From Nemertoderma westbladi (Eukaryota > Animalia > Xenacoelomorpha), in contig JAUCBJ010006043.1 of assembly GCA_032718475.1 (NCBI GenBank), forward strand, positions 1,759 to 65,758: a DNA stretch of 64,000 nt, read 5' to 3'. The notes under the pieces were generated by a model. The model had not been told where the DNA came from, did not search any database, and saw only the letters and a list, made by a program, of their open reading frames with translations. The position numbers were made by a program, and so were the translations under genes. Position 1 is the first letter of the stretch; the number at the start of each line of letters is the position of its first letter. Shown here piece by piece: positions 25,117 to 61,335 of the stretch.

Positions 25117-25212
25117 AATTATTTAGTGATTAATTACAAAACCTATATATATATAAAATTTATATAAAAAATATAATTGATACAAAAATGAAAAATATAT
25201 ATTAAACCCCTC

Positions 25213-26805
25213 TTACTCCTTGTCACAGTCCACTTGCACACTCCTGTTACTCCCGTCATCACCCGGACTTGCTGGCTCGATACCCAGACTTCGAGAGACT
25301 GGATTACGCTCTAAACCTCCAAGTGTACCTGCGGCCCGTGTACTCCCAAAGTTAGCTCTCCCATAATACGGTCTTATCTGCGTGTTCATAGGCCAAAATT
25401 CACCAACCATCAATTCCATACGTTCCTCCTCCTTACATGTTATAAGGAATGATCTAGACCAAGACCCCGACTGTGAGATAAGTTCACATTTAACGTCATA
25501 CCCCTTCCCAACCTTTATGTAATCAATGATTGTTGCAGGTACAACATCAGCTCCACACCCAGTAAGAAATAGCCTCGCAAAAGGTCGCGAACTCGGAAAG
25601 GCCACCACACTAGATTTACCTTTAACAACTTCAGACCGCCTGTCACGCCACAACTGTCTCTCAGGCTTGTAGGAGGCTCTTCCAACCTGCCGTTGATCAC
25701 GACCTGGTTTTACAGGTTTACCCTTTACTCCCATTCTTGTATACCCAACATCCACCGAGTCAACCTCACTCTCCGATATGTCACGATGTCGAACTCTAAC
25801 TATATCGTCATCAGTTCCCTCTAGAACCTGGTATCTGTTGCGGTTACGGTTCTCTCCACCCATACGTTGTTGTCGGAATTGCTGTTGACCTTGACGGTGT
25901 TCTGAGACCAGCACCTCTGAATAACTCTGCCGCGAGCGGGTGCGATTGAGGTCATTGCCGATAGCGGTCCCACCGCGTTGAGAACTACTGCTGCCATTTC
26001 CAGACCCGTTAACAGCTGATGCACACACGCCACCCGGAGGAACTGGCAATTCTCTTGTCATCATAGACCTATCCCTGTCACCAGAGTCTGGGATACCGAT
26101 TACTTCAGTTGATCTCTTTAGCGCCAACCCAACTGATTCAACCAGCTCAGCACCTGGGGTCAATTTACTTGGCTCCTGTTCCAGACCTAATTGGTTCAAG
26201 CAAAAAGGTAGACATATTGCCTCGAGAACCGCCAAGCGGTCCTGTAGAAAGCTAGTTCTCTGTAATAATACTGCAGTATCTGACTGAGACAATGAATACG
26301 GAGGTAGAATAGTAAGATCAAAAGGAATAAAAATCGATCGATTCTCTCTGACATTATTACCAGCTATGAACGGCTGATAATCAAATATATCTAATATGTC
26401 CCCAATCAGGTTGCGACGTAATGACTCACCAGATTGTCTACTTTTAGCAAATGATTGCTTCTGTTTTTCCTTATCTGTCGAGGGTATTAAGCCTAATATA
26501 ACCTGTTTGGCTTCCTTCAACATGAGATCCGTAAACTTTGGCCACACTGACGCTATTGAGACAATACTGTCCCTATGATATCCTTTAAGGTGACCCAACC
26601 ATAGATATGCTAGAATATCGTTTAGCACATGAACTCCGCACGGACCGCTATGTGGGCGCGGTGGCAGTACACCATCGGGATTCATTATTGCGTTCCCTTT
26701 CCTCAAGCTTATGCCGTTGCCAGTTGCAGGCCTCCGCCTACTATTAAAGTATTGCACTAGCTGATATACCGGTACCAACAATATAAGTCCAGAAGTAGTC
26801 AGCAT
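25213..26805 (-). CDS. LINE ORF1 protein
   Basis: 530-aa ORF directly upstream of the endonuclease; N-terminal LNDILAY...DILDIF...DLTILPP and C-terminal LFLTG...SFLI...FWP pattern resembling invertebrate LINE ORF1s. Confidence 0.7.
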   Translation of the reverse strand: MLTTSGLILLVPVYQLVQYFNSRRRPATGNGISLRKGNAIMNPDGVLPPRPHSGPCGVHVLNDILAYLWLGHLKGYHRDSIVSIASVWPKFTDLMLKEAKQVILGLIPSTDKEKQKQSFAKSRQSGESLRRNLIGDILDIFDYQPFIAGNNVRENRSIFIPFDLTILPPYSLSQSDTAVLLQRTSFLQDRLAVLEAICLPFCLNQLGLEQEPSKLTPGAELVESVGLALKRSTEVIGIPDSGDRDRSMMTRELPVPPGGVCASAVNGSGNGSSSSQRGGTAIGNDLNRTRSRQSYSEVLVSEHRQGQQQFRQQRMGGENRNRNRYQVLEGTDDDIVRVRHRDISESEVDSVDVGYTRMGVKGKPVKPGRDQRQVGRASYKPERQLWRDRRSEVVKGKSSVVAFPSSRPFARLFLTGCGADVVPATIIDYIKVGKGYDVKCELISQSGSWSRSFLITCKEEERMELMVGEFWPMNTQIRPYYGRANFGSTRAAGTLGGLERNPVSRSLGIEPASPGDDGSNRSVQVDCDKE

Positions 26806-26836
26806 GTATTCAGTCAGTCAGTAGTACAGTTCTATA

Positions 26837-27912: not shown

Positions 27913-29829
27913 ACTATTAATCCTGCTGTCATAGCCTCCAGAGGAGCTACACCCAAGGAACTAACTGAGACACCAGATTGCCTAGGTGGCCCCGACTTCC
28001 TGAGTAAAGAAGAAGAGGAATGCCCCCCCCCCCCCCCCCCCGCCCCCATCTCACCACTGCCGAGATCAGACAAGCCAAGGGAGCGGAAACTGTTAAGCCA
28101 AAGATGCGGACGAGTAAATCCAAGCTGTTTAAACCGATGCTCGATCTATCGATTCTACACGCTGCCGATGACAACAATGATGCCACACCAACCGGGATGA
28201 ACCGGGACTGTGGCCTATATTCAGAACCAAGATTGGAAGACTGGGATACCTGATGTCTCTAAAGGACTCTCACCACTAGTGAAGAGAGCTTGGAATAGAC
28301 ATTGTAAAGCAATCACGTATTTGAAACGGCTTTTCCACCACCATTATTCCAAGACTAAAGAAATTCACAGTTTTTAACGGACAAGATCACGCATCAGGAG
28401 CATGACAATACCAATAAGCAACTACTGAGGCTTCTACAGTGCCATGATGATCCTGAGAAGCATTTCCTGCTGATGAAAAATCCGCAGATGCACTTAAAGG
28501 ATTCTTTGTCCAGTATGATGTTTGACAGACTCATACGTGTTGGAGGGAGATTAACTAATGCACCACTTTCCTTTGACACTAAGTACCCCATCATCATCAA
28601 AAATCTTGAAATACAAATCAAGATGATTGTAGATGTCCATAGTAATCTTTATCATGCAAGTAGGGAACGAGTTCTTAGCGAAGTTAGAATGCGCTATTAT
28701 TTTTATAAGCCACATAAAGCACTAAACCAAGTTCTTAGGAACTGCATACCCTGTAGGAAAGCATTAGGCCTTTAACCCAGCGAGAGGCAGAATTACCTAG
28801 GGAAAGAGTAAGCTGTTATGAACCACCCTTTACTAACACTGGTGTGGATTTATTTGGCCCTATTGAAGTGTACCGCGCTCGAACTATAGTCAAGCGATGG
28901 TGCGTTATATTTGTTTGTAAGACTTCGTAAGACTTTATGACTTTGTAAGAGCGATTCATCTGGACATGGTGAATGATTTATCTACTAATAGTTTCATACT
29001 CAGCCTACGCCGACAAATCGCTCACTTTGGGACTAGCAACACCATGTGATCAGATAAAGGTACCAACTTTATCGGGGCCAATAACGAGATAAAGGCTTAC
29101 CCCTGGCTTCCCCTGGCTTCATTTTTTAATAAGTCAATGAATGAAGGAGCGCTACCAGACAGTTGTTTGGAAGCTCGCCAACATTTCCCCACAATTTAAG
29201 AATGGTGGTAAATATTTGTGTGAAAACTTAACATCTATCAGTCTAACATTAGTGGTCTGCAAACTTATGGAACGAAATATTGTCAATGAAACATACAGCA
29301 ACATGAAGGGAAATAACCTTATATATACCCTATGACCAATACTGTTTCCAGAAAAGCAGAAATGGCGATCATGCCCTCTGCAACTACGTGATTGTATCTT
29401 CCATTGGTTCAAAGTACTAGATGATCGCATGTGCATCGATGTGTACTTGGACTTAGAGAAAGCCTTTGATTCAGTGCCACACCAGAGACTGATTGTCAAT
29501 TTGCAGGCCCTTGGAATAACTGGCAAGTTATTAAATTGGTTTCAGGTCTTTCTATCTTGTAGATACCAACCCGTGGTCATCAGTGGGAAAGCATCACCGT
29601 GGCTACATTTTGACAATGGTGTTCCTCAGGGAAGTGTTGCTGGAGTTTTCCTATTCCTTGGATACGTGAATGATGTTCCAACTCTACTCATTCATCTTTT
29701 CACCAATGACATCAAAGCGCTATATTCGACCCCAGGAACATCACATCTATTGCCCTACTACAAAGTAATTTGGATGTCCTGGACCGCTGGAGCAAATTGT
29801 GGCAACTTCTTTTTAACCACGACAAATGT
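27913..29829 (+). repeat. Right arm of the ~1.9-kb inverted duplication
   Basis: Mirror of 17600-19494; paired ORFs (100 aa, 64 aa, 124 aa) differ by only a few residues. Confidence 0.9.
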
Positions 29830-30104
29830 AAGGTAATGCTCGACCACTCACTAACAGACTAAAGTCCACAGATTTACAAAAATACTTGGGAGTCCTGTAG
29901 AGAACATGACATTGGTGATTGGTTTGTCAACACATTAATTCAACACATTACCCTTTCTGTCTTTGAGACTATTATCATGTAATCTTTAGTCAATCAATGT
30001 GCAATGCAATGCAATGTGCAATGCAAAGTGTGTGCAAGGGAATTGCCATAAAGGGTGAAGGAATATTGTAAGGGGATGGTGATGTTTTAGATGGAAATAA
30101 ACAA

Positions 30105-30633
30105 TGTTAGCTTATTCAATCCCGCTAACACCCCATAAAGTTAAGCCGATAAGCAATATTGGGGGCCACGAGATTGGGTAATCACCAACTCGTGTCACCC
30201 CAACAAAATGGGAAGGAGAAACACAATAAGGGTAAGGGGCCAAACCCCTAACAGAGAGAGAACAGGTGGAGTGAACGGGAACACTCCAAAGGGTGCCAAC
30301 AAGGGTATCAACCAATCAGAGGGGGGAAAGGCATCGATTAGGTAGAGTAACAAGGCCAACCCATGCAATATAGCCAGTTGGCAGTAATCATTTTACTCAG
30401 TTATCTCAGTATCATATTGGTGCTAGTTAGGTTAGTTAGTTTAGCTAGGGAAGGACCGGGACTTTAATTACCGTATCCCACCTTCCGTGTACGACATCAT
30501 ATATCTATATCTGTATCTTATACCTGAACATTATACGTGACAAACAACGTAAACCCTTTCACTCTTCACACACGGCGGGGACGCGTGAATTAACAAACCG
30601 GATAAACCGGGATTCTCCCTGGATCCCGTCACA
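30105..30633 (+). repeat. E2 5' LTR
   Basis: Matches 48663-49191; about 8 substitutions counted by eye. Confidence 0.95.
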
Positions 30634-30728
30634 GTAATTAAACCCGTCGGTGGCACAGTAATTAAATCCGAGCTGCCACCCCAGCTAGCTACCAGTGACT
30701 ACCAACCTCCAATCTAAAGTTAAAGGAG

Positions 30729-33700
30729 ATGAGTCAGTCGGGAGAGACAACACCGACGCGGACCCCGGATGAAGAACTAACGATCCGCGAGGCCGCGACC
30801 AGGCGGTATACACCCACGACGCCGGACCCATCGGTAACGGGCGATCCGGAAGTTCAGGATGAGGGGGGCCGTCTGGAGTCAGAGGTCGAGTCGAGAAGAT
30901 AGGGCGAGTTGGAGGGAGAAGGAGACGAGTCGACACGGAATGAGGGTCGACGCACCGATGTCGCCAGCCAGCCACAGGCCGAGGGTGACGAACGGCCCAC
31001 CGAAACGGCGACGGTGGGCCCGACGGTACGACATCGGACCCAGAGAGATGGAGGAGATGTCGGTACCGATGTCGCCGGCCAGCCACAGGCCGAGGGCGTC
31101 GAACAGCCCACCGGAACGGCGACGGTGGGGCCGCCGGTACGACGTCGGACCCGGAGGGACGGAGGAGAGGTCGGCGACGAGGACGTCGGGGTTTCTGAGC
31201 GACTTCGACGGGCCTACATCACGACCCGGAGACTATTAGAGGAGGCCAGAGGAGGGGCGACGATATACGAGGTAAAACTAAAGAAAGGACTAGGTGAGTC
31301 GAATAGACATTTTAACTATTTAATGCGATTCGGACAGAGAGAAATGGCCGAAGAGAGAGCGAGAGGGGTTGCCAAGGAACTGTGTGACCTATGGCGGTGT
31401 AGGGATATGGGGCCTGGTGCAGTGTACATAGGGCCATACTTAGTCGGTGCCCAGGGTATAAAATTAGTGGGTTGGAAGAGACCTGAGGAGGGCGAATCCG
31501 AGGTTGACCCTGAGGATTCGGTCTCGTCGGTCGGAGGGAGTTCCGGGAGGAGGGGGAAAGTTAGTAGATCAGGAAGGCGGAGGGAATCCGTCACAACTGA
31601 TAAGTCTGCTACATCCTCCGTGAAAGAAAGACGGGTGAGAGAGATAAATGCTACATACCAGCTCGGTCTAATAGCACAAGGCCATAGAGAAGTAGATAGA
31701 CGGCTAGAGGAGGGGAGGGTGTTGCTAGAAAGGGAAATGGTGCTGATTAGAGAGACAAGAGAGAGGGCCGAAAGGGCCGCGAGAAGCCTTGGGGAGTGTG
31801 AGGAAATAGAGAGGAAGGAACAAGAGGGGCGTGTGGCGGAACATAAGGAGCGTGAGGCGAGAGAAGAAAAGGAACGCAAAGAGCGTGAGGCGAGAGGAGA
31901 AAAGGAACACAAAGAGCGTGAGGCGGAACGTAAGGAACGTGAGGCGAGAGAGGAAAAGGAACGCAAGGAGCGTGAGGCGAGGCGAAGGGAGAGAGCTAGG
32001 AGAGTGGCAGAGTTGGCCGACCAGGACGCGCGGGAGTGTGAGGAGAGAATGGCAAGAGCAGAGCGAGAGCAAAAGGAATTGGAGAAACAACAAATTGGGT
32101 TTATAGAGTACAAAGCTAGACACACGCGCGAACTGGAACTGGCGCAGATAGGGGCGTCTGGGAGCGAGGCTGGCTCGAATACTTTCGAGGGGCCAAGGGC
32201 CGTGGATACGTTTATTAATACCCCACTAACAGGGACCGCACGACAGACCCAAAACTGGTGTGACCGTACGGGCGGGGGGGGGGGGGGTAATAACAATAAT
32301 GCTACAGTAGACGTTGTTAATATTAATAGTACCGTATTGGATAACTCTAACCAAACCTTTATTGCAGGAAATACTTTGCCTAGTGGTAGTAATTTAAACT
32401 TAAATCAGAACGATTCTAATGTTAACGTAGGAAATAATCCGAACAATGTAGTTACGCAATATAATCCAAATAATTTAAATAACGATCCAAACCAGAATTT
32501 ACTAAATAATTCAAATAACGTAGTTACGCAAAATAATCCAAATAATTTAAATAATGATCCAAACCAGAATTTACAAAATAATTCAAATAACGTAGTTACG
32601 CAAAATAATCCAAATAATTTAAATAATGATCCAAGCCCGAATTTACAAAATAATTCAGATAGTGTAGTCGCGCAAAATAATTCAAATGATTTTATTTCGA
32701 ACGAACAAAATAATTCCGTTTCCAATATGGGTGCTATTAACGTGAACACGTCGGGCGTGTATGGCCAGGCAGATGGGGGCCTAGTAGGCCACGTAGTTGG
32801 TAGGCAGGGAGTGGCTGGGTTGGGTAGACCCAGCGAGGGCCTGGTAGGCCACGTAGTTGGTAGGAAGGGAGTGGCTGGGTTGGGTAAACCCAGCGAGGGC
32901 CTGGTAGGCCACGTAGCTGGTAGGCAGGTAGTGGCTGGGTTGGGTAGACCCAGCGAGGGCCTGGTAGGCCACGTAGTTGATAGGCAGGGAGTAGAGGGCC
33001 TGGTAGGCCACGCAATAGCGGAGGGAGAGGTGGGGGTGAATGGGCCCGACCGCGGTAGGGTTGATGTGTCGACTAGAGGGGGATATAGCAGCGGGATGAG
33101 AGATAGCGAGGTTAGATGTGGCGAGTGGGGGGGGGGGGGCTACAGGGGCCCCACAACAGCGAGTTAGCGGCGAAAGGGGGGGGGGGGCAGAGAGTGCCCC
33201 ACAGGCGTCAACGGATAATGCGCGGGCCGAAGTAGGTAAACCGCAACACCCGGCGACGGAGAGTAATAGGGGGATTGCGAGTATCCCCAGCGGCGTGCGA
33301 CCGAGCAGAGAGAGACAGGTTGACGTCGTGAGAGGGCGGACGAAGCGTCGAGCCCGATCAGAAGAGGGAAGAAGAGTAGTGGAATTTAACCGGGAGGTCA
33401 ACGAGAGATCTCACGAGCGGGAATACTCCACTGAAAGGAGAAGAAGAGAAGCCAGTAGTAGAAGTATCGCCGCGAACTATAGAAGAGCGAGGACGGATAG
33501 CGAGCCGTCGGTAGTCGAGATGAGAACAGAGAGTCAGTGGGGTCGAACTCCGGGAGATTGCCATCGCCCCGGAGAGATGCGACCTGGCGAGGCGCATTAC
33601 GCGCCGATGGAGGGGTACGCGATGTACCGGTACGAAGATGAGAACAGTAGAGAGGGGGGTCGAAGAGAAACTTTCCGACGGAATATACCTACCGATCGAG

Positions 33701-35767
33701 AGTACGGTAGCCACGGGGAGGACTATTCGAGAAGAATAAACTTCGATCCTGAGCGACACATGCAGACTGTAGGACATACTGTAGGCCTTACTGCACATAC
33801 CATAGGCCATGCTGACAGAGGCAATGTAGGCGATAGGATAGCGCGGACAACGGGATTAAACCCGGAAGTCGCGGAATACATACCGGCGGGTAGGCCAGAA
33901 GCTGATAGGCCTATACCGGTACCAGTACAGCAGTATGACTACAGCATGCAGGGACATAACATATACCCAGGGGAGGGGGGAATTATTGCGGATAGGTGTA
34001 TGGGCCCCAATATATTAACATCAACCCCAGTACCAAACATACCGGTGGGGGGGGGGGGGGACAGGGTGACATTCCCCCATCACAATATCAACAATATACC
34101 CCGATAGGAGCAAGAACAACGAGACCCTTGGATGAAAATAGGTCGTGCGACACGGAAATATGGAGGGGGCCGCTACCCCCGATGACATATCCAAGTCAAA
34201 GAAAGTCAAGAAATAGGACGGACGGACCGCATCAGACAGGAGAAACCATACAGCATCCATCGAACCCATTGGAAGCGCAGGCGATGGGGATGGCCACGTT
34301 AATCGATGCGTTGAAAACGAGGATCGAGTTACCACCCGTGGAACCATTCAAATTCGATGGGAGTAGGCCGGAAGAATATCTACAGTTTCGGCGCATGTAT
34401 AGTAACGAAATACTAACAAAGAATTTGACGCAGGCGGAGTGCCTAAAGTATCTGCAAGTATACACGGGAGGCCCAGCATACGATATCGTGAGGCAATATC
34501 AAGGCATAAAGGGCGGCTTCACGACAGCATGGCGGGCACTGGACAGGGAATACGGGCACCCGGCCAAGATCATCAGACAGACACTGAGAGGCATAACATC
34601 GGGTGGCCTACAGGATAATCCCGTTAGCATTAAGACGTTCGCTAACAAAGTCGAAAAGGTGCTAATCGTGCTGAAGACGCTAGACGCGCCATACGAGCTC
34701 AACGCGTCCAATAACATCACCACGATAGCGCAGGCACTACCGAACTGGCTGCGCAACAAGTGGAGGAAGATCGCTTTCTCCACTCGAGACAAGAAGGGTG
34801 TGGAACCGGGTTTAGAAGAAATGTCAAGTTTCTTAAACTACGAAGCTGAACTAATAACCGACCCAGTCTATAGCGAAGATAGCCTGGGAAAGGGACCGAA
34901 GACGGACTACCATAGACCGAAACCAGAGCACAACACATCAAACGCACTACCGAGGCTCAGGCAATCATTGCCATATGCAGCGACGCAGGGGACTGCAAGT
35001 CCACAGATAGCCGAAAGTGAGACCACACCATGGAACGGACAGGGGAATAATAACAACACAAATAAATATAACCCCAATACGTCCAGTAGGCCGAATCCAA
35101 ACAATAAGAATAGTAGGGACTTTGGCACAAACGCAGCTGCGATACGCGATGCACTGTATAAGGAGGGCTACGACCCAAAGAGCAAATGCCAGCTACACGC
35201 AAATGCGCTTCATCAAACCATGAACTGCAGATACTGGCAAGCGCTACCTAGGCAAGATCAGATAGATTATGCGTCGAGCAATAAGATCTGCTCGCGATGT
35301 GTGATGAGTGGACATAAAGCTAGGGAATGCAAGGAGAAGCCGGTCAAGTTTGGTCAAAGGAGAGGCCAAACGATGGCAACGAGCACAGTAGGGGCGAAGA
35401 AGAGAGGAACGGTGTTGCTTGGAGTAGTACCCGTGCGAGTGATTGGAGAAGGCAATCGATCAGTAACAACACTAATGCTGGTTGATAGTGGAGCTGCCTT
35501 CACATTAGTCGAGGAATGGGTGGCCGAAGAGATAGGATTGAGAACGAGGCCAAGCAGAATGGCGGTAACAACCATCTCTAGCAAAGATGAGATCCTGGAG
35601 ATGAGAACCGGACGGTGCGCAATTGCAGCAGTGGCACCGGGATGCGACTATGGGGCAACCATCGACCCCATCCAAGTGATAGAGTCAATTAATATCAATG
35701 CCAGGCGGCCAACCAACATCGAGGTCGAGCAATATAAATTCCTGGACGACATTGACTTCTCAATCCC
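30729..35767 (+). pseudogene. gag: E2 gag-protease with a very long N-terminal extension
   Basis: ATG at 30729; in-frame TAG at 30900; frame changes at poly-G runs (~33130, ~34050); LPPVEPFKFDG, CSRCVMSGHKAREC, LVDSGA. Joins 42403 in frame once the nested element is removed (…DFSIP|DVDVRK…). Confidence 0.85.
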
Positions 35768-36030
35768 TATAGCGTACTCATGGTTTTAGAGAATACTATA
35801 GTGATTCAATGTATTAAAGATTCCACTAGGTGGTGTTAGCGATGTAAAAGTTTGATTCTTTGCCAAGTTGTGTAGTAGTTATTCAATGGTATATTGTTTT
35901 TTCTATTGTTGTTGTGGAGTTAACCTATTGCAAGTATTCAATATGTAAGTTAATTAAATTGTTTTCAAGCTAATAAATTTATCATTTTATTTTATACATA
36001 ATTTGTGATCAAAGAGATAAGATCACTAAA

Positions 36031-36041
36031 TGGCGCCCGAT
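36031..36041 (+). promoter_or_regulatory. tRNA-Lys-type primer-binding site of the nested element
   Basis: TGGCGCCCGA directly after the 5' LTR. Confidence 0.85.
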
Positions 36042-36252
36042 ATAAATTTAAATAACTGTATTCAATATTTTAATTAACTGAGATATTATAATTGAATTAT
36101 TTTAATGGAAAATAATTAACTATAATGGATCTGTAATGGAACAGAGGAGATTTGACTCTGACAAACATGAGAAACGGGAACTGACGTCAATCAAGAGTGT
36201 TAAGCATAAGGTGAGTCACAAATAGAGTGTTACATGTGTCAACATCGATTCA

Positions 36253-39200
36253 ATGGCAACTAAATTACGCAATAAGCGTGCTGGAATCAAAAGTTACTTG
36301 AAACAGTTGATGGCAAAAAAGTATGAGGAATTGTCTAGCATCGATGTTGAAGCAGCGTTAGAGTCAACTCAAAAACGGTTACAAATAATTTTAGACCTAG
36401 ATGATGAGATATTGAGTGAAATAGATGAAGATCTAGTAGAAGAGGAAACTTTAAAAAATTCAAACTATGTACTGAATGTTGAGTATTTCATTGTCTATCT
36501 AAAAAATATTCTAGGTATTGGTTTAAAATCCAAACCATTCACAAGTAGTCCCGCCATTATTGGTGGAGATTCTGAAGTCAATACAACGAAACGTGTTACT
36601 AAGTTACCAAAGTTAGAGTTAAAGAAATTCAATGGAAAAATTACCGAATGGCAAGGCTTTATAGAGAGTTTTGATTCTGCAATTGGTACAAATAATTCTT
36701 TAAATGGAGTGGATAAATTCAATTATTTAAAAACTCTTTTAGAAGGCCCAGCTTTATCGGCAATCCAAGGATTATCTTTATCAGAAGATAATTATCACGT
36801 TGCACTAACCACTCTTAGAAATCGCTATGGTCAAACAGAAGTAATAGTGAATGCACATTTGGAATTAATTGTTAATTACCCAAGATTTTTCAATTGTGAT
36901 GACGCAAAGAAATTTCGTGCGTTTTATGATTTTTTAAATATGCATGTTTTACAACTTGAATCATTAGGAATTTCGTGCGAAAACTATGAATTGGTAATTT
37001 TTCAAAAGATCATGACAAAATTACCAGACGACATTAAATTAAAAATGGGTCGAGATTTAGAATCAAAGACAGATATCAATTTACTTTTAAAACATTTAGA
37101 ACAAGAGGTAATATTAAGAGAGAGATTGAGTGCATATGCAGAAATGTCGAGAACTGGATCAACTACAAAAGACAAGGAAACGAGTAAAACTTCAATCCAC
37201 ACAAATAACACTGCTGGCACTTACCACAATGAGTCAATTAATCAAATTTCAACAATAGCAGCAACAATGAGACCCCCCCAGCATCAAAGTTTTTATCCGA
37301 GTTCCAAGTATTCCAAATCAAATTTGTGTTGTGTATTGTCACGGGAGTCATTATGCTGATTTATGTGATGTATTTACAAATGTAGAATCGCGTACAGTAC
37401 ATCTACGTAAAGAAGGTCGGTGCTTTAATTGTTTAAGAAAGGACCACGATGCTACAAATTGTATTTCTAAAAAGTGCTGTTACTTTTGCAAGAAACATCA
37501 CCATTCGTCATTGTGCTATAAACATTTTAGAACACAAAAACCAGCTGAGAGTAGCATGTGTAATAGAGATCAAATTCAAAAACCCAAATTGGAAGCAGGT
37601 AAGAAAGCTGAGAATAAAATAAATTCAGGAAATACAACGTCACAGCTGCTAATTCCTAATGCAAGCAACTCAAACTCAAATGCGATGTCAATTATTCTAC
37701 AATTAGCTCGAGGTAATATATCGAATGACGATGATATCTCTAATGTTCAAAAAGTAAATAGATTTTTTGACAAAGGCAGCCAACGAAGTTTTATATCAAC
37801 GAAATTGGCCAATAATTTATCCTGTACTGTAATTGGTAAAGAAAATATTGAAGTTAATTCATTTGGAGATAAAATAGTTGAAATATCATGTCCTATTGTT
37901 GAACTTTATTTATTTGGAAAAAATGGTGAAAAGCTACATTTAAGTGCATTAGTATATGACAAAATATGTGGTTCTATCCATGCTGATGAAGTTGAAATAA
38001 ACAGATATAACCATTTACGAGATTTAGATGTTGCATACCCTATTGAAGGAGGTGTGTTCAATGTTGATATATTAGTAGGACTCGATCACTATTGGAAAAT
38101 CGTACAGGATGACATTTTAAAGGGAGATGGAGGTCCTATAGCAATGAGTAGCATAATAGGTTGGTTAATATCAGGTCCAAAATCAACCGAACCAATATTA
38201 AATATAGAAGAGAATGAGTTCAATGAGACAAGTTCAACTCACAACTTGTTGTGTTCCATTGATTCAACTGAGTCACAAATTCAAATTATTGGTTCAAACT
38301 TAAATGTGGAAGAGAAATCAAATTCAATGGTGGATGAGTTCCAACAATTTTGGGAGACCAGCATCAATAAAGATTCTGAATCAGATTCTAGTATTATAAT
38401 TCAAGAGTTAACAAATTCAGCAAAATATGACGAGACAAATAAACGATGGACTGTTGCAATACCATGGAAAGATAATATTCATAAGCTTTTAGATAATTAT
38501 GGATTAGCAAAGAAAAGACTCATAACATTACTCAAAAAGTTAAATACCGATCCAAAGTTATTCAAAATGTATAAGGATACATTAGAAGAACATATACGGC
38601 TAAATATGATTGAGGTCATTCCACATAATGAGATCTATTCAACCAAAAATATCGTATATTACATACCTCACTTTGGAGTCCTTGACGAAACGCGTTTAAC
38701 AACAAAACTCCGTGTTGTTATGAATGCATCACAGAATGATAAGAATGGTCTTTCATTAAATAAGTGTATTTATAATGGGCCAAATCTCTTACCACTTATT
38801 ATAGATATGCTTCTGAGATTAAGATCCTACAAAATAGCAATTGTAGCGGATATTGCAAAAGCCTTTTTGCAAGTAGCAGTGAATAAAGAACAATGTGACA
38901 CCTTGCGTATACTTTGGATTGATGACTCGGGAAATATTATACATCTTCGCTACGTGAGGTTGGTGATGGGAGTCGGATCAAGTTCATTCTGTTTGAATGC
39001 CATTATTAAGATTCACATTGAGAAATTCAAACACCTTGCACCTGATTTCATTAAAAAATTGCTTCGTGACATCTATGTTGATGACTTAACAACAGGGGAG
39101 AACACAGTGGAATCAGCAATTCAATTATATAATCAATCAAAACAAATAATGTCAGAGGGTAATTTTGAACTGAGAAAATGGAAGAGTAATGACCCTGCTG

Positions 39201-41745
39201 TTATGGCACATATAAATAATGTAGAACAATTTGAGCCACAACCACGAGAGGATTTCAATGATAGTTATGCAAAAGCAACATTGGGACCATCTGCAAGCTC
39301 TGAAATTAACAACACCACGAAAGTTCTTGGATTAACATGGAAATATGATGTAGATAAATTCATGTTTCATATTTCAAACCTACCGCACCAACTAGATGCA
39401 ACCAAGAGGAACTTACTCAAATTTTCGGCACACATATATGATCCCTTGGGAATATTGAGCCCATTTACTATTCAGATCAAAATACTATTTCAAGAACTAT
39501 GTATTTCTAAAATAGATTGGGATGTTCAATTGGAAGGTCAACATTTCAATAAATATAAGAAATTCTACTCCGACTTAAGATTTTTAAAAAAATGATGAAT
39601 TCTTATTTCCCCGATATTGTCTAAGCCCTCACCATAATGACAGTATATCTCAAGTAACTTTGCATATATTTGGGGATGCTTCAGCGAAAGCATTTGCAAC
39701 AGCAGTTTACATTAGAACAGAAACTAATAACGAGGTTGAAGTCAATTTATTGGCTGCTAAAAGTAAAGTTGCCCCTATACAGAAAACAAAAAACAACTTC
39801 ACCTGCACTCCACGTCTTGAGCTGCTCGCAGCAGTTCTTTGTATAGATATCCATAATATTATTATCAATGCATATAATAACGTATTAAAAATTTTCAAAG
39901 TCTACTTCTGGTCCGACAATCGGACAGTTTTATGTTGGATAAAGAATGATACTGACTATGTGGCTTTTGTTCAAAATCGAGTTTCCAAGATCAGACATTT
40001 CTCAAACCCATCACAATGGAACCACTGTCCTGGATGTGAGAATCCGGCTGATCCCCCATCAAGAGGTACTTGCGCCAAAGAGTTACTTTCACATCCCATT
40101 TGGCTTAATGGTCCAAAATGGTTAGCTTCACCAGAAAAGTTCTGGCCACATTCAAATGAGGAGGGAATGCTAACCGAAGATTATTATAAAGAGGTAAAAA
40201 AGAAAACAAACTTTCCAGTTTGTATAGTATCAGTATCAAACAAACAACCAATTTTTGATGTAACAAGATACTCAACATTAAACAAAGTGATTCGTATTAC
40301 ACATATTATATTTAAATTCCTACAAAATGTGAGTTCATCCAAGTGTTGTCCAACATTAACATCAATAAGTCTCTCTCCAGAACAATATTGGATTAAAATT
40401 ATACAAGAAGAACATTTCCCCCACGAATTGGAATATCTCCATTCTAAAAGTGGATCGTGTCCGCAGAAGGTACATCAATTGGGTTTAGAACTAGATTCCC
40501 ATGGAATAATAACTTGCAAAACGAGATTAGAGAGTGCCGACTTACCTTATGCCATGAAACATCCAATATTGTTACCTAGAGCAAAAGATTCTTATTTTAC
40601 TAAACTACTAATTGAACAAATACATGTAGATGTATTACATGCTGGGACATCTGGAACGTTAAGCCATACTAGAGAACAATTCTGGATTCTCGAGGGTAGA
40701 CGAAGTGTGAGGAGCTCAATATCAAATTGCAAGCATTGCAAAAAAATAGTTGGAAAATCATACCCCACTCCACTTCTTCCTCCACTTCCAATCGAGAGGA
40801 TATCTGAATGTTTACCTTTTATATGTACTGGTGTTGATTTTGCTGGTCCCTTAAATGTCAAGCGAACCAGCAACAGGGGAGAAAATGGAGTTATAGAAAA
40901 ATATAAAGCATGGATTTCGATATTCACCTGCGCAAGTACACGTGCAGTTCACCTTGAAGTTGCTGAGGATCTAACTGGAGAAGGATTTTTAAGTTGTTTT
41001 CGTCGATTTGTTGCTCGAAGGTCTTGGCCAGAACAAATGTGGTCAGACAATGGATCAAATTTCAAAAGTAACACTGTCAAGAAATTTATGGAAAAACACA
41101 ACATTAGATTCGAGCACATTGTCGAGAAAGCCCCTTGGTGGGGTGGACTGTGGGAACGAATAGTAAAGATGATAAAAGAGAATTTACAAAAAGTGTTGGG
41201 ACGCTCATTACTAACATTGATTGAGTTAATAACAGTTTTATCAGAAATTGAAAGTATACTGAATGATAGACCACTTACATATGTTGATTCCGATCTACAT
41301 AGTCCAACAATATTAACCCCATCTCATATTTTAGTTGGAAAAAGGAATTTCACTAAACCTATCGTTGTGTCTACTACTGAAAGCATACCTGATAGTACCC
41401 AGAAACAAGTACAACAACGCTGGGAGTACATATCTAAATTGCGTAGAAACTTCCAGAAGAATTTCCGAATGACATATTTAACTAGCCTGAGAGAACGTTT
41501 TTGGCCACGATATCAACTGTCGGGTCCAAAGATCGCCAAAGATGATGTTGTACTTATAGAGAATGAAGATGTATCAAACAGAGCGTTGGCGTTTGGGAAT
41601 TATAGACGACCTAATAGAAAGCCGTGATAAAGTGGTTAGAGCGGCAAATGTAAGAACTATTACTCAAGGAAAGTTGCCTAAACCGATATATATAAAGCGG
41701 CCGATTCAAGCCCTATATCCATTGGAGATTAACTGTAATGATTAG
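36253..41745 (+). pseudogene. pol: gag-pol of the nested BEL, three frameshifts
   Basis: LPKLELKKFNG; CCHC knuckles; DKGSQRS protease; YVDD; FGDAS; VDFAGP/SDNG/WERIV integrase; frameshifts at ~37330, ~39590 and ~41575. Confidence 0.92.
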
Positions 41746-42402
41746 ATTTATTAAATTGTCTAATTAGAAATGTTAATTATTGAACTAAGTGTAAAATTAA
41801 CTATTTGTGGGATTCGTAATATTCATACTATATCATATGGTTTTGTTCTAAGTTTTATAATTAAAACAAGGTTTAATTAAGAATTTTAACTTGAGATTTA
41901 TAGTGAAGTGAAGTTTAAGATCTCAAACTGCACTACATAATACGTAAGTTACATTAATTGTATTAACATTTGCGTTAAATTGAAGCTATTCGTATCATTT
42001 ATGTGAGCATGTAAATATTGTATATTATTATTTTTTAGTATTTTGGTGACAGTTATCAATATAGTGATACGAATTGATTTTACATATTGTGTTTCAAAAG
42101 TAAATAAACTTACATAATACAGTTTACAGGGGAGTATAGCGTACTCATGGTTTTAGAGAATACTATAGTGATTCAATGTATTAAAGATTCCACTAGGTGG
42201 TGTTAGCGATGTAAAAGTTTGATTCTTTGCCAAGTTGTGTAGTATTTATTCAATGGTATATTGTTTTTTCTATTGTTGTTGTGGAGTTAACCTATTGCAA
42301 GTATTCAATATGTAAGTTAATTAAATTGTTTTCAAGCTAATAAATTTATCATTTTATTTTATACATAATTTGTGATCAAAGAGATAAGATCACTAAAATC
42401 CC

Positions 42403-45400
42403 AGATGTGGACGTTAGGAAGGTATCCATCATAGTAGGAATGGACTGCCCAACGGCCCACGAAAGAATGCAAACGGTCTTCGGCGAAGACAAGCAGTGTG
42501 ACCCGGTGGCGATATTAACACCATTCGGGTGGACGATGAGTGGCCCAATCAAGAGCAAGATACCGTTTAGGATGTCGGAGACATCAGGATGCATGTTCGC
42601 GGGAACAATGCAGGAAATGAGTGATGAGAGAGCAGAAGAGCAACTTAAAAGACTGCTCAGACAGGATTTTGAAGGATTAAAGGAGACCGGGGTCGGGACC
42701 TCGGTAGAAGACAAGCAGGCTTTACAAAGTGTGGAGGAATCGATGACATGCGATGAGGGGCGGTACACCATAGGAATGGTGTGGAAACTACCGAAGTTAC
42801 CACTGCCCGATAATAGAGGGATGGTACTCACGAGACTCCGCAAGCTGAAACAAACACTAAAACGGAGCCCCGAGAAGAATGAGTACATCCACAGAACAAT
42901 TAAGAAGTACGTCGAGAAAGGATGGGCCGTGGAGTTACCGGTCGACGAGCCGAACACGGACAGGACATATTACCTGCCACTCCACGTGGCTTTAGACCCA
43001 AAGAAAGGTAAACTGCGGGTGGTAGTTGACGCATCGGCAAAGACCAACGGAAAATGCTTAAACGACTATCTGTTAGAAGGTCCAAACATATATAACTCGG
43101 GCATAGAGGTCCTACTTAGATTTAGGAATGGGAAACACGCCTTCACGTGTGACATAGAAGGCATGTTCAACCAAGTCCGTGTAACGGAGGAAGATAGCGA
43201 CAGTCAACGCTTCTTATGGTATAACAGCGAGGAAGAACCGTCGATAATACCGGCATATAAGATGGTAGTACAAAACATGGGAGCCAAGTCGTCTTCATTT
43301 ACGACGACTATGGCAGTGAGAGATACAGTGAAGGGGAAGGAAGATAGATACAGCACTAGGGCCGTCGATATGATTCGACGCGGCTTCTACGTAGACGACG
43401 GAATGGAGTCTGGAAATACGGTTAAAGAGATACTGGACACAGGGCGCGAGGTTCGCGACATCCTAAAAGGATCCGGCTTTAACCTGACCAAATTCCAATC
43501 CAGTTCGGAAGAATTTATCAAGGCGATAGAGGACAAGAGACCAGAATCGACCATGGATAATCCCACAACAGCCAAAGGGCAGGACATGGCGAACAAGAGA
43601 ACAGAATCTCAACAGAAGGCATTGGGAATCGTGTGGAACAGGGAGACAGACGAACTGAAGTATCAGCTGAGCCAGGAGGGCGCAGACATCCACACGAAGA
43701 GGGGCTATGTATCGTATATAGCAAGGATATACGATCCCCTAGGCCTAGCATCCCCATTATTAGTCACGGGGAAACAGATACTCAAGAGAGTATACAAATT
43801 GAAGGATGAGTGGGACGTAGAGGTACCAGAGGAAATCAAGAAACAGTGGAGTAAGTGGACAGGAGACTTGGAGAAGATGGGAACATACAACATGCCACGA
43901 GTGTATTTCCCGGATGGGAACATGACGAATCTGGACCTACACATGTTCTCCGATGCGTCGTTGGAGGCGTACGGAGCGGCACTCTATTTAGTACAACGAG
44001 AGGGGGCTCATAAGCCCAGACTGGCCTTTAGCAAAGCAAAGTCAACGCCGCCAGATTCAGCATCAGTTCCCAAGTTAGAATTGACAGCTGCGAGACTAGG
44101 AGTTAGAGCCACAGCCTACCTAGTGGATACTATTCCCAACATAGTGGAGACACACTACTGGACGGACTCCATGGTAGTGCTTGGTTGGCTACATAACGAA
44201 AGGACGAGATACCCAATATTCGTCGCGAATAGAGTGGACGAAATAAGGGTGACGACAGAGCTAGGAAGGTGGCACTACTGCCCTACGGACGAGAACCCAG
44301 CGGACTTGTTATCGAGGGGCATGGCACGCCACACTTTCTTGAAGAAGGAAGTATTGTGGCAACACGGGCCACAATTTCTGAGCGATAAGGAGGCCTGGCC
44401 GCCGATGAGAAAGGTGGACCCGGGCTCAGAAGTAGTGTCAGAAGGAGAAGAGGCAGATTCAGAGGGAGAAGAGATATACTCCCAGATGGTGAGGGAGATA
44501 AGGGACGTGCAACCTAGACCAGAAGAACTGTGCGATAACCCGACGGATAAACTCCTCAGCTACAGCTCTAGTTGGTATAAGACCAAGAAATTAGTGGCGT
44601 ACTGGAGAGCCTTCGGGAATTTCCTCGCGGGAGTCGGCAAAGACAAGAAGATCAGGACATCCATAGTTCTGGAAGGAGCGGCCAAGGCAGTCATCCGCTA
44701 TGAACAACGGAAGAACTATGGCGACGAGGTGGAACGCGTCGGTAAGCAACAGCATCTTCGACGGGACAGCGAGCTGATCACGCTGTCACCACAACTTAAT
44801 GATGACGGGATTCTAGTAATGAACTCTAGTGTGGGATACAACAATAGCATCGTGGTACCACCGAAGCCCATCATCATCCCTACAGGATCGCCGATAGTCC
44901 ACCAGATTATCTGGGACTCCCATAAGTCAATATTGCACGGAGGCACCAACCGAACCCTCACGGAGATAAGGAGGACCTTTTGGGTCAAACAGTTGAGGAA
45001 GAAGGTAAAAGCGGTAGTGGGGCAGTGCCAGACCTGCCGACAAGCGAAGAAGGAGAGAGCCATACAAGAGATGGCACCACTACCAGCGAGTAGAGTAAGA
45101 CAGCACGACCCGCCATTTACGCATTGCGGTGTGGACATGTTCGGGCCGATAAAGATCAAAGTGATGCGACACACGGAGAAACGCTATGGCATTATCTTCG
45201 TATGCAACAACACACGGGCAGTAGGGATAGAACTCACCCAAGATGCAACCGCATCAGCATTCATTAATGCTTTAGAAAGGTTTAGAGACCGCAAAGGTGG
45301 GACGATCGCAGTGATATACAGCGACAATGGCACCAATTTTGTGGGGGCAGAGAACGAGATGGCAGAGGCCTTGGATATCCTGGAAGGAGAAGAAGTCAGG

Positions 45401-46030
45401 GCAGCCATGAGGCGACGACAAGTAAAGTGGGAGAGAAGGACGCCGTATGCACCACATACACTAGGGTGCGTCGAGAGACTGGTGGGCAGTTCGAAGCGTC
45501 TTATGACGAAATTAATGAACACCCATATGGTCACAGAGGACGTCTTGAGAACAGTATTAGCGAAGTGTGAGGATATCATTAATAGCAGACCACTATATCC
45601 GGAGAATGATGACCCTGAGTCACTAGACGTGCTGACGCCTAGCCATTTTCTAATGGAAAGACCAGCGACCATCGATATGCGGGGTGTAGATCCAGACGAC
45701 ATACACTCCCGCCAAAGTTGGAAAGTCGCTAAAGCAATAAGCGCAGAGTATTGGAGGAGGTGGGTAGAAGAATACCTACCCACGCTCCATAAAAGAAGCA
45801 AGTGGAGGAAGCCGAATAGGGAGTTAAGAGTAGGAGATCTCGTAATCGTTACGGATGATACTATCATCAACAACCAGTGGCGGTTGGCGAGAGTTGTAGG
45901 CACTTACTCCGATGAGGACGGAAGAGTCCGATCGGTAGAAGTGCGGATAGGTGGTAAGATAGGTGCGAAGGACAGAAAAACCTACAGGAGAGCTGTAGGG
46001 AAATGCTGTCTGTTAGAAGGGGCACCTTAG
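42403..46030 (+). CDS. pol: E2 pol (RT, RNase H, integrase), open frame
   Basis: LRVVVDAS, DIEGMF, YVDD, FSDAS, NPADLLSRG, HHCC, VDMFGP, SDNGTNF, VERLV, VGDLV. Confidence 0.95.
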
Positions 46031-46645: not shown

Positions 46646-47025
46646 GTGAGAGATAGAGATAGAGGTAGTAGGGTATATAAAAGATATAGATATTAGTTAG
46701 CAGTTAGTAGCGAGAGGGGGGCATATGAGTACAGCTGGGTAAATCGTGTGGCCACGCGACGCATACTGCTGTACTGCACAGGCCCACAGAGTAGGCCAGA
46801 ATGTGGATTAGGAGATAGAATAATCCATAGGCAGTAGCAAGTAATAGGAAACAGTAAGGTAGTAGGATTAAAATCAGATCAAAACAAATAGGATAGATAG
46901 GGCTAAGAAGGGGAACAAATTATGGTAACAGTAATAAGAAAATATAGGCTATTTAACTCAGAAATTCAGAAAGAGATAGGCCATCGAACTGAACTTAAAC
47001 CACCTAAACCCATCACTCATCACGT

Positions 47026-47973
47026 TTGCGCCTTGGCAAGGCACCACCTACTGGTGAGCGATCGGGCAGAGTTCGAGATGGCAGGCAAACTAGATGGGAG
47101 AGGAGAGAAGCAGAAGAGAGGGAGGAGGAAGCTAGGGCGCAGAGCTACGGCTTTGAGGAACAAACGACCTTAGACGAACTTCGTTGGGCTTCGTCAGGGA
47201 GTTCGGGGGAGTCTCTAGGGAAAGAACTGGGGTGGACGGTGGGATCACTGAGACAGTCGACGTCGGGATTGCAAGCGATGCCCATACCAGCGGGCGCCGA
47301 GGGCGATCAACCGCAAAGGAAGCTAGGGGAGCTTGAGGAATGGAGAGTTACGGGCAAGAACCAAGGTGGGAAGGGACATAGTGGGTCCACCGAGATACCG
47401 GGGTTGGGACCACTGCGAGAGGAGGACGAGGACGACGACGAGTTCGGAGAGATGCCGCCCATCGAGAGGATAGGCCACTCGGACACGGACTGGGTTGGCG
47501 GGAGGGTGGTGACGGCCAGTGGGGCGAGAGCCTTCTGGGACAAACCCGGCAAGCGGGCCTGGGTGCACGAGGGGCCGGCGATGGATTTCGCCGGGAGCAC
47601 TATCAGGTTGGGCAAGCAACCGGGGACGGCACCACGGGTAGTATTCGGAGAGACGATGCCCGGGAGGGGCGAGGAGATCGACGTAGACAGGGACGCTAAC
47701 GTCCAGAAGTTCGCCTATCAGCGACTCCACAGACCGCGGAGATCGCTTGGGATGAAAGACGACGTGGGGCGGGAGACATTGGTACTCGGTTGCGACTACT
47801 GTGGGAGACAGACCCACCAGGAAAGGAGCTGTTTGTACCGGTTCCAGAAAGGGACCAGCTGTCTCTACTGCCACGAGACGAGCCACAGGATGGGAGCGTG
47901 TCCACGGTTGCAGAACCGATGTCCGAAGTGCAACTTTCGGGGACACCACGGACGCCAAGGAGGGATGGACTGA
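47026..47973 (+). CDS. E2 accessory ORF with three zinc-knuckle motifs (possibly truncated)
   Basis: CDYCGRQTHQERSC and CLYCHETSHRMGACPRLQNRCPKCNFRGH, matching the E1 and E4 accessory motif; start codon uncertain. Confidence 0.7.
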   Translation: MRLGKAPPTGERSGRVRDGRQTRWERREAEEREEEARAQSYGFEEQTTLDELRWASSGSSGESLGKELGWTVGSLRQSTSGLQAMPIPAGAEGDQPQRKLGELEEWRVTGKNQGGKGHSGSTEIPGLGPLREEDEDDDEFGEMPPIERIGHSDTDWVGGRVVTASGARAFWDKPGKRAWVHEGPAMDFAGSTIRLGKQPGTAPRVVFGETMPGRGEEIDVDRDANVQKFAYQRLHRPRRSLGMKDDVGRETLVLGCDYCGRQTHQERSCLYRFQKGTSCLYCHETSHRMGACPRLQNRCPKCNFRGHHGRQGGMD

Positions 47974-48662
47974 GGCTTTGATGTAGTGCGCCTGGAAGGC
48001 GCCACGCGAGACGTGCGAACTATGTACAAATTTAATTAATGTAAATAATCATATAAGTACAATTTGTATGTACGTACGTAGTAATCAGTAATCTACAAAT
48101 ATATACGTTCGGAGTAAGTACTATAGTCATACAACCTTTCTCAATTAGCTACTGGGACTGGGGGGTAAACTGACTATGGCACTATGGACGAGACACCAGA
48201 CGATCTCACACTTCTTGAGTGCGACGGCATGGGAAGGGGGGTGAGATTCGTCAGAAGGGATGAGGTAGTCAAAGTGGGGTTGAGGGATGGAGTAATAGTG
48301 CGGAGTGCGGAGAGAGTGCGGATGCAATTCTAGTGTGGGGGGGAGGAATAAGAGGCTGAGTGAGGGACAAGGAAGTCCGAGAGTTAGAGCGGGAGAGAGG
48401 AGAGTCCATATGAGAGAAGAGTAGAGTCAGGGCGAAAGTGTTGGGGAAACAAAATCGTGTGAGAGGTGAGCACGGTCGGCCCGACATGGGACGCCAGGCG
48501 TACAGGGTAGCATTATCATACCCATAGGGAGCGGCCTGGAAAGCCGGCTCCGAGAGAAAAGAATTCCACCCCACACCCGATACTAGATCGGGATCCAGCG
48601 GGATTGTAGCGCACTTTGAGGTGGATGCTATCTTCTCACCAGGAAGATAGCATGGGGGGGAG

Positions 48663-49191
48663 TGTTAGCTTATTCAATCCCGCTAACACCCCATAAAGTT
48701 AAGCCGATAAGCAATATTGGGGGCCACGAGATTGGGTGATCACCAACTCATGTCACCCCAACAAAATGGGAAGGAGAAACACAATAAGGGTCAGGGGCCA
48801 AACCCCTAACAGAGAGAGAACAGGTGGAGTGAACGGGAACACTCCAAAGGGCGCCAACAAGGGTATCAACCAATCAGAGGGGGGAAAGGCATCGATTAGG
48901 TAGAGTAACAAGGCCAACCCGTGCAATATAGCCAGTTGGCAGTAATCATTTTACTCAGTTATCTCAGTATCATATTGGTGCTAGTTAGGTTAGTTAGTTT
49001 AGCTAGGGAAGGACCGGGACTTTAATTACCGTATCCCGCCTTCCGTGTACGACATCATATATCTATATCTGTATCTTATACCTGAACATTATACGCGACA
49101 AACAACGTAAACCCTTTCACTCTTCACACACGGCGGGGACGCGTGAATTAACAAACCGGATAAACCGGGATCCTCCCTGGATCCCGTCACA
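48663..49191 (+). repeat. E2 3' LTR
   Basis: TGTTAG...GTCACA, preceded by PPT and followed by the TSD. Confidence 0.95.
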
Positions 49192-59833: not shown

Positions 59834-60173
59834 TCTGAGCAGGCTTACACGTCTTCTGCTCAATATTAGCCTACAGATGAATAAAACTGACAGAAATAAG
59901 TAAACCATACAAAGGAATAAGGGGTGATCAATCCCTAATCCCCTAACAGCCTACAATATACAATATATCACAATCGAAATATACTAGTACCTTTACTGCT
60001 GTAAGTACCGGTTCCGGTGGTTAGGTAGTTAGGCCTACAGGTTACCGGTCGACCGGTACTTTTCAACTTTATTGCTTACTGCAATAAAGAAGCAATAACT
60101 GTTACTGTTCTTACCAGAACAATAGTAAACTGTATTTATTGCCTACACTGCAATCAGAGTTTATAACTGTTAT

Positions 60174-61335
60174 TGTTCGCGCTTTTAGACCTTAGGCAGT
60201 TTAACCCGCCTAATTTAGGTGTCTTTTAGTTTGTAAATCGACTTTAGCCTACGACGAGTATTTGATACACAACATTAGCCGAAGCCAGCCTATGCGCGAT
60301 CATTCACCCGCTGGATATACCCGGGAGACTGGATTCGGGGGCTCTGACCTTATTGCGGTGTAGGCCTACTGTATTATTCGATTGATCATTAATATATAAT
60401 CTCTGACAAATATTATTCACTTTCGGGAAATATTAACAGTTCCCTTTGGACATGGCGCTCTAAATATATAAACAGAGCTATGACTTACACTAAACACAAC
60501 GGGATGGCTAATGATTCACGTATAAGGCGCATTCTTTAGGAGATGCTTTGTTATCTGTCACAGTCATGCACACTACCGGTACCGCACAAAACTGCACACT
60601 GATCTGCCGACCTTCACTAATTTTAGTCACATATAAAGAGAACAGCAATTGACCCATGTAGTACCTATGAAATAGCATTAGATTCACTCCAAAACCAATA
60701 TCATATAAGTCGCAATTGCTATATGTAACCGGTCTCTTACCTTCAGTATATCAAGAAGATGGGGTTTTATGATTATTTCTCGATATTATCCAAATATAAC
60801 AATTTTCCATCAATAGATACAATTAATAACCGACAGTAAATAGCAGTAAAATAATGCGGTGAAAGATATGTATTGCATTTGACAGGCAGGATAACAGTTA
60901 TACGTTCCGGTAATCAAAGCCGTTCTAATGTTTTGGCTAAAGTCTGAAACAGAATAATTCCATAGCCGATGTTCATGGCATCAGGAAAACCAACACACTG
61001 AAACCTGTGGGCTGTTGTAGGCAGCTTTCAACACAAAGAGAAATAGCTCTCATTGGCAGAACTCCAGATTCTATAGGTTCCACGAACGTCTAAATGCCAA
61101 ACCTCCCTAGCCTTTGCAGCCCATAGCCAACACAAGGCTAAATCGCTCTGATTGGTCGATCATTGTTCTGATTGGTTAATCGAACAGAACAAAGAGGCCA
61201 TACGTACAGCAAATCGGCCAATCAGCCAGCAGAATGCATCACTCGAGCAAGGCAGTTTTAGAGTATTTGAGCGCATTGAGGGAAAACTGGATTGCGGAGA
61301 AAAAGGGCCAGTTACATCCCGCAAAAGCTTTTACA
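60174..61335 (-). repeat. E3 5' LTR (1162 bp)
   Basis: TG...CA termini, TSD, match to the 3' LTR. Confidence 0.93.

Follow-up and report, generated by a model that had tools for sequence, protein, structure and literature searches.

A BEL/Pao retrotransposon of Nemertoderma westbladi whose primer-binding site pairs with its own LTR

We describe a BEL/Pao retrotransposon of Nemertoderma westbladi, hereafter E2, whose primer-binding site (PBS) pairs with a site in its own long terminal repeat (LTR), and which probably primes reverse transcription with a piece of its own RNA. E2 lies in a stretch of 64,000 nucleotides (assembly GCA_032718475.1, contig JAUCBJ010006043.1, positions 1,759 to 65,758), hereafter the window, in whose numbering all positions are given. 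We observe the identity and the ends of the element, the lack of TGG at its PBS, a pairing of nine plus four bases anchored at the LTR edge, and the recurrence of such pairing in a second element of the window (E4) and in 14 of 15 distant relatives. The use of the pairing as a primer is our interpretation of these observations.

Results

E2 spans positions 30105-49191 on the plus strand. Its 5' LTR (30105..30633, 529 nt, TG...CA) is 98.5% identical to its 3' LTR (48663..49191), with 8 differences in 529 nt, and a 5-bp target site duplication, AACAA, flanks the element (30100..30104 and 49192-49196). Since the 3' LTR and the duplication on both sides delimit E2, the end of the 5' LTR (...GTCACA, at 30633) is fixed. 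A polypurine tract (48654..48662) abuts the 3' LTR, and this feature, the target duplication and the LTR length, within the 0.2-1.2 kb of the group, are those of BEL/Pao elements. The gag-protease region (30729..35767, plus strand) matches DUF1759 and Asp_protease_2, in a frame broken by a stop codon and frameshifts, and pol (42398..46030, plus strand) has matches to RT, RNase H (Peptidase_A17), integrase (Integrase_H2C2, rve) and DUF5641. The order is that of the group, gag followed by PR-RT-RNase H-integrase with Pao-type domains. The co-occurrence of DUF1759, an aspartic protease, Peptidase_A17, integrase and DUF5641 therefore identifies E2 as a BEL/Pao element. Among the matches listed, PF05380 is carried by 120 of 120 homologues of E2, and the 119 of 120 that fall below the top match show 35-39% identity to its pol. 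Named BEL/Pao clades are BEL, Pao, Tas, Suzu, Sinbad, Sailor and others; in our tree E2 forms a long branch with poor support, and all the relatives scored below fall in a clade that excludes it. The copy is interrupted by a nested BEL/Pao element, E3 (35768-42397), and its gag is broken. An extra 3' reading frame (47008..47973, plus strand) gave no significant match in Pfam and contains a Cys/His module common to E1 and E5, two other elements of the window (tblastn E-values of 6e-7 and 0.005, respectively).

The original prediction, made from the letters alone, was that E2 has no tRNA-type PBS and that the bases following the LTR pair with the LTR itself. Re-examination of the sequence found all its coordinates correct. 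Directly 3' of ...GTCACA stands GTAATTAAA (30634-30642), without TGG, and it is the exact reverse complement of TTTAATTAC at 30463-30471 in the LTR. The pairing extends across a 2-nt bulge (AC, 30461-30462) into a second helix, in which CGGG (30457-30460) pairs with CCCG (30643-30646), such that the LTR partner of the second helix, with its bulge, covers 30457..30462 and the whole PBS covers 30634..30646. On the other side the pairing ends exactly at the LTR edge, with a mismatch between C30472 and A30633, and this is where the 3' end of a primer must sit; the last C of the candidate self-primer (30463..30471, plus strand) would carry the priming 3' OH. The motif CACAGTAATTAAA occurs only at 30630 and 30654, and its second copy is flanked by GGTGGCA (30649-30655) and TGCCACC (30674-30680), the ends of a leader hairpin (30649..30680) whose loop holds a second copy of the LTR end and PBS (30654-30666). 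Pairing of the primer with this second copy has a model probability below 0.08, and any role of the copy is putative. The initiator-like TCAGT said to precede the LTR site is present twice, at 30397 and 30406, 66 and 57 nt before it.

Complementarity between the PBS and the element's own LTR is the feature known from the Tf1/sushi group. In place of the 18-nt PBS complementary to a host tRNA 3' end, which the ICTV describes, E2 has a junction without TGG. ARAGORN found no tRNA in the 64-kb window, and Rfam returned no tRNA-like RNA in 29900-31000, only one match at chance level. In the available part of the PMC13524379 supplement, the tRNA-end table, which is limited to the mature tRNA ends that Ty3/gypsy elements use, lacks TTTAATTAC and includes the control, the tRNA-Lys end that matches E3.

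A deleted TGG site in this particular copy would leave an intact one in others. Four public DNA runs, from no more than three samples, supplied contigs that we compared with 30050-30900; contigs of three runs were compared with 30436-30676. Same-species contigs enter the same PBS start after the LTR, and none of the rows listed has TGG at the junction. That these contigs share the PBS start, and that none of the 15 readable relatives starts with TGG, argues against the missing TGG being a lesion of this copy. Among the rows listed, 10 of 14 joints start at 30635-30642 and rejoin near the start of gag, four of them exactly at 30642 (the joint sides measure 23-47 nt, and those under 30 are less reliable). 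Four joints lie at 30635-30637, and therefore some same-species copies diverge after 2-4 nt of the PBS, their partners being outside these data. Contig depth drops about tenfold past 30642 in all three runs: summed over 30634-30642 it is 11162, 12730 and 238, and over the next 9 nt 1143, 995 and 31.5. It also declines past the LTR site. In two runs, one contig type has the 9-mer a third time, within the leader. Within the E2 family we saw no phased compensatory change, in contig data that cannot phase both sites. The lack of substitutions at both 9-mers in the 30436-30676 comparison was set aside, given that rows at 30480 and 30662 in the 30050-30900 comparison vanish there; its end positions are apparently hidden.

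An anchored contiguous match of at least 9 nt arose in 24 of 5000 dinucleotide shuffles of E2 and at 67 of 9053 pseudo-junctions of the window. Nine pairs followed by four after a bulge of up to 5 nt arose in 1 of 20000 shuffles, by a criterion set post hoc, once the site had been seen. When the search is loosened to an offset of 0-4 and one intron, 28 of 306 swapped pairs score at least 9. Scores of this size being common under the looser search, the 9-mer of E2 alone is modest evidence, and it takes its weight from the exact anchoring, from E4 and from the relatives. Anchored matches in the controls were 3-6 nt long, both for E3, whose site is TGG, and for the 3' flanks of E2, E3 and E5. Taken singly, E2 with its 9 bp is one of the weaker cases; the signal across the group is strong.

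Three 5' junctions can be read in the window, the 5' LTR of E1 being absent from it and that of E5 lying beyond it. Two are self-complementary (E2 and E4) and the third, that of E3, has TGG. E3 (35768..42397, plus strand, LTRs 35768-36030 and 42135-42397) thus serves as an internal control with an ordinary site: its PBS, TGGCGCCCGA at 36031, matches the tRNA-Lys end, and its match to its own LTR is only 4 nt. The E3 LTRs start with TA and end with AA, not TG...CA, and its target duplication is ATCCC. In E4 (minus strand) the PBS, ATAACAGTTATA (60162..60173), stands directly 3' of the 5' LTR (61335 to 60174), has no TGG, and is the exact complement, over 12 nt, of a candidate self-primer at 60891..60902. 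Such a match was found in 1 of 5000 shuffles and at 12 of 8963 pseudo-junctions. The LTRs of E4 and E2 have no detectable similarity, and the 12 paired bases of E4 differ from those of E2. Like E2, E4 has in its leader, about 70 nt on (60105), a near copy of LTR end and PBS; its target duplication is AGTTC. E5, which is 73% alike to E4, keeps the candidate self-primer site at the homologous place (62368-62380). E4 as a whole (50196-61335) has lost nearly all of pol; gag-protease, a long leader and the LTRs at both ends are retained, and a GT...AG intron-like stretch is common to the E4 and E5 LTRs downstream of the primer site.

A profile of the RT-RNase H of E2 and 24 relatives retrieved 99 BEL/Pao loci from metagenome and genome collections. 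The 52 without a direct repeat were dropped, as were 29 of the remaining 47 in which the repeat did not fix the LTR end, L028 (coding repeat, score 7), L091 (another element, with the RT outside its LTRs, score 5) and L099 (damaged 3' LTR end, score 12). This left 15 loci whose 5' LTR end is fixed by the divergence of both copies, independently of any pairing. The LTR of each was scored against its own leader, with an offset of 0-4 and one GT-AG intron allowed. The pairing recurs with other letters in E4 and in 14 of the 15 relatives, with matches of 10-13 nt to their own LTR; the fifteenth scores 8, with 10/11 at a junction. None of the 15 starts its PBS with TGG, although L083 has one a single base in, within an 11-nt self-match. 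Not one of the relatives' own 3' flanks reaches 10 (0/15), and swapped LTR-PBS pairs do so in 8 of 306 cases, or 3 of 268 once sister pairs and E3 are removed. Four further loci with an inferred LTR end score 10-13. Helix length in the relatives clusters at 11 nt, and self-pairing is spread over their tree. Since E2 lies outside the clade of the scored relatives, a mechanism shared with them is drawn by analogy. A duplicated PBS in the leader was not seen in the 15 relatives (best 7/9), the viral collection gave no relatives, and the LTR-end motif was not found in metagenomes. Twenty-two of the loci (L078-L099) come from contigs filed as bacterial genomes and are most likely animal DNA in bins.

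In 11 of the 14 pairing relatives the partner is complete only across a predicted GT-AG intron of 76-697 nt, and in 3 it is contiguous. The donors, chosen by pairing only, are mostly consensus-like: GTAAGT in five cases, GTAAGC in two, and GTAAGA, GTGAGT, GTACGT and GTAGCG. These LTR introns are predictions from DNA. In L006 the 5' LTR has an acceptor and the 3' LTR the contiguous form, possibly a snapshot of the origin of intron-less forms such as E2. In the sisters L079 and L081, three primer and three PBS bases have changed together at a homologous donor. We take this case as illustrative and not as proof, given that the loose search cross-scores 11 through other GT sites. Splicing inside the E2 primer was rejected: the site is preceded by AC, a spliced search adds nothing, and five divergent contigs span the promoter region to the site with small gaps only. 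As a separate observation, E2 has no AG for 181 nt (30450-30634, plus strand) up to the LTR-PBS junction, where CACA is followed by G. A gap of this kind arose in 1 of 20000 shuffles, is the second longest of 4336 in the window (post hoc), and has no counterpart in relatives. With the donor-like GTTAGT at 30431, a splice to this junction would strip the primer site from the mRNA.

Upstream of the primer site, a predicted promoter (30312..30410, plus strand) comprises CCAAT at 30312, an AT-rich AATATAG at 30367 and the initiator-like TCAGT at 30397 and 30406. The spacing of these motifs suggests a start near 30399. The candidate primer would then be internal to the transcript and not its 5' end, as the original prediction supposed, and for this there is indirect support of two kinds. 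A second helix of at least 3 bp after a primer-side bulge of 1-5 nt is found in 8 of 21 elements, two of which are sisters, against a null mean of 1.8; this count was reached in 3 of 20000 derangements. A bulge on the PBS side occurs in 3 of 21, and the strict 3-bp helix is absent in 13 of 21, including E4. The recurrence of the bulged second helix implies that sequence upstream of the main helix is transcribed. In addition, the spliced relatives have only 3-6 nt of the helix in their upstream exon, and an internal primer is favoured because the predicted first exons must be transcribed.

Folding from 30398 predicts an outer stem, a U5 hairpin and the leader hairpin. The outer, long-range stem (5' arm 30418..30431, 3' arm about 30680-30694, duplex -17.2 kcal/mol) belongs to the minimum-energy fold. 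The U5 hairpin, of 8 bp (30608..30628, -12.7 kcal/mol), lies just before the LTR end, and hairpins of 8-9 bp are predicted near the LTR end of E4 and E5 too. In all three elements the predicted U5 stem-loop adjoins the PBS as in the Tf1/sushi group. The core primer helix of E2, at 9 bp, is AU-rich and shorter than the usual 11, with -12.1 kcal/mol including its extension. The minimum-energy fold (z -1.47) lacks it; with the RNA beginning at the predicted start, the model assigns it a probability of 0.2-0.3, and a fold that contains it costs only 1.0 kcal/mol. AATAAA does not occur in the LTR of E2 or of E4.

Several further features of the window are worth recording. E1 is scrambled and has no 5' LTR within the window; its 3' LTR (9755-10854, minus strand, 1100 nt) includes four GC-rich repeats, each about 99 nt long and containing palindromes. 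An extra 3' frame of E1 (11029-13653, minus strand, 874 aa) has no Pfam match and resembles 3'-5' exonuclease clusters (Atlas 0.92), and its Cys/His module is the one shared with E2 (47008-47973) and E5 (about 63630-63880). An inverted duplication of 1.9 kb (17597-19494 and 27913-29832, 97.5%), made of BEL/Pao pol, flanks a LINE-like element at about 22270-26817. Tandem arrays lie at 1900-3850, 46200-46600 and 49300-49820, with units of about 52, 32 and 22 nt.

Discussion

The sequence of events that we favour for E2 is as follows. Transcription would start near 30399, and the 5' part of the RNA would fold back so that 30463-30471 lands on 30634-30642, held in place by the bulged second helix, the outer stem and the U5 hairpin. 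The cut after C30471 would be made by a nuclease, which the Tf1 precedent suggests is the element's own RNase H. The resulting 5' piece of about 70 nt would prime minus-strand DNA on A30633 and be extended back to 30472, and the strand would then jump to the 3' LTR copy, a step for which the poly(A) site must lie beyond the primer site. Splicing of the LTR intron would finish the primer in most relatives, and E2 and E4 would have the primer ready-made. The 3' copy would serve to restore the LTR sequence that lies upstream of the cut, which would also explain how relatives keep an intron there. We also consider a wider proposal, which we hold to be an even bet: much of BEL/Pao would replicate without tRNA, by means of an internal self-primer, long and capped, that host splicing of an LTR intron normally completes at its 3' end, such that splicing gates replication, with E2 and E4 carrying a hard-wired version of the spliced primer and a duplicated landing site in the leader.

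The same pairing can be read in other ways. E2 might operate exactly as Tf1, its transcript starting at or just before 30457-30463, its primer being the RNA 5' end and TCAGT being irrelevant. The 11 nt at which helix length clusters in the relatives is the length of the Tf1 primer, Tf2 has alternative start sites of which only one includes the self-primer (PMC5341516, in part), and the modelled pairing rises to as much as 0.7 if the RNA starts at 30450. However, CCAAT, the AT-rich box and TCAGT stand at promoter spacing 57-66 nt upstream, the second helix and the outer stem use bases further upstream, and a 5'-terminal 11-mer in the spliced relatives would need a first exon of 3-6 nt, so that we find this reading unlikely. 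We give slightly less credit still to a primer supplied in trans by a separate short LTR transcript, or formed where the RNA 3' end has been trimmed to the copy of the site in the 3' LTR (49021-49029). The site has no poly(A) signal ahead of it, the strand jump would require repeat sequence to follow the site at the 3' end of the RNA, and the local stems favour pairing in cis. It is true that the site is identical in both LTRs, and DNA therefore cannot separate the two copies. The resemblance of the E1 extra frame to 3'-5' exonucleases (Atlas 0.92) is a lead in the same direction through the Cys/His module shared with E2, but the extra frame of E2 has no exonuclease-like part.

A host RNA (a tRNA half, a mitochondrial tRNA or a small RNA) might prime instead, with the LTR pairing acting as a masking structure for regulation or packaging. 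Priming by half-tRNAs is known in Ty1/copia lineages (PMC6317226, in part), and the TGG at 30651 agrees with an insect tRNA-Ser end at 8 of its last 9 nt (PMC13524379 supplement, in part). Priming at 30651 would nevertheless put 30634-30650 into the 3' LTR, which ends in CACA ahead of the target duplication, and this TGG sits where contig depth has dropped; Rfam, moreover, gave nothing tRNA-like around the junction (29900-31000). Across the 17 scored elements, the many PBS sequences are nearly all matched by the element's own LTR and rarely by another's, and since they differ one host RNA cannot serve them all. We thus regard this explanation as improbable. The least credible reading, now largely refuted, is that this copy once had an ordinary TGG site and lost it, the pairing being due to chance. 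This copy is indeed broken in gag and interrupted by E3, and the 9-mer taken alone has a p of about 0.005-0.007; against this stand the independent pairing of E4, the same junction in the same-species contig rows listed, and the 15 relatives, none of which begins with TGG. Internal self-priming by a 5' piece of the E2 RNA hence remains our preferred reading.

Should the pairing indeed serve as the primer, self-priming would reach a third superfamily of LTR elements and take in an internal primer; for most of the readable relatives it would depend on splicing, an arrangement that we did not find described for any LTR element in the literature covered. This would explain why PBS-dependent annotation fails on self-pairing BEL/Pao elements, and would mean that such self-primers escape control by tRNA fragments. 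It also predicts the RNA-DNA junction exactly, C30471 being joined to the complement of A30633. We found no report of BEL/Pao self-priming or of a splice-built primer in the literature covered, most subscription papers and Repbase notes being outside its scope. A term search found no text on PBS or priming in PMC3118150, PMC554778 and PMC12440569, and there is nothing on BEL/Pao priming in the available parts of PMC8220671, PMC3286476, PMC5408684 and PMC13524379. The ICTV calls BEL/Pao replication "poorly understood" and gives for Belpaoviridae an 18-nt PBS complementary to host tRNA-Arg or tRNA-Gly (PMC8742986).

Self-priming has been reported for Tf1/sushi, Tj1, Tcn1 and plant TAR elements (available parts of PMC7175516, PMC4600332, PMC6317226, PMC5341516, PMC3601003, PMC6934838 and PMC5443660), and Tf1 uses for this the first 11 nt of its RNA, freed by an RNase H cut (PMC7175516, in part). 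The E2 feature is real and in our best reading would work like that of Tf1; E2 is not a member of the Tf1 group and departs from the BEL/Pao description. Like Tf1 and Tf2 of Schizosaccharomyces pombe, Tj1, and the Tf1/sushi and Tcn1 chromoviruses of Ty3/gypsy, E2 lacks a tRNA site and its PBS is complementary to its own LTR; like the Tf1 group, E2-type elements have a helix near 11 nt with a U5 stem-loop alongside (PMC7175516, PMC4600332, both in part). Unlike that group, E2 is a BEL/Pao element, with a Pao-type pol in place of the polymerase of Ty3/gypsy chromoviruses. Its site is predicted to lie 57-66 nt inside the transcript, whereas the Tf1 primer is the very start of the RNA, and most relatives of E2, unlike Tf1, would need splicing to form the primer. 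Self-priming is proven for Tf1, and for E2 it is predicted from sequence alone. In this respect E2 resembles the TAR lineage of plant Ty1/copia (Houba, Osr-1), where self-priming outside the Tf1 group was likewise predicted from PBS-LTR complementarity; TAR belongs to another superfamily and another host kingdom, and the available part of the source describes no intron-split primer (PMC6317226). With Belpaoviridae (Semotivirus), E2 shares its LTRs, gag, the PR-RT-RH-IN order, the polypurine tract and animal-type relatives. In contrast to the ICTV description of that family, a tRNA-type PBS is absent from E2, from E4 and from 15 of 15 readable relatives, while the nested E3 has its TGG. Because the protein-based assignment of E2 is clear, its missing tRNA PBS calls this description into question.
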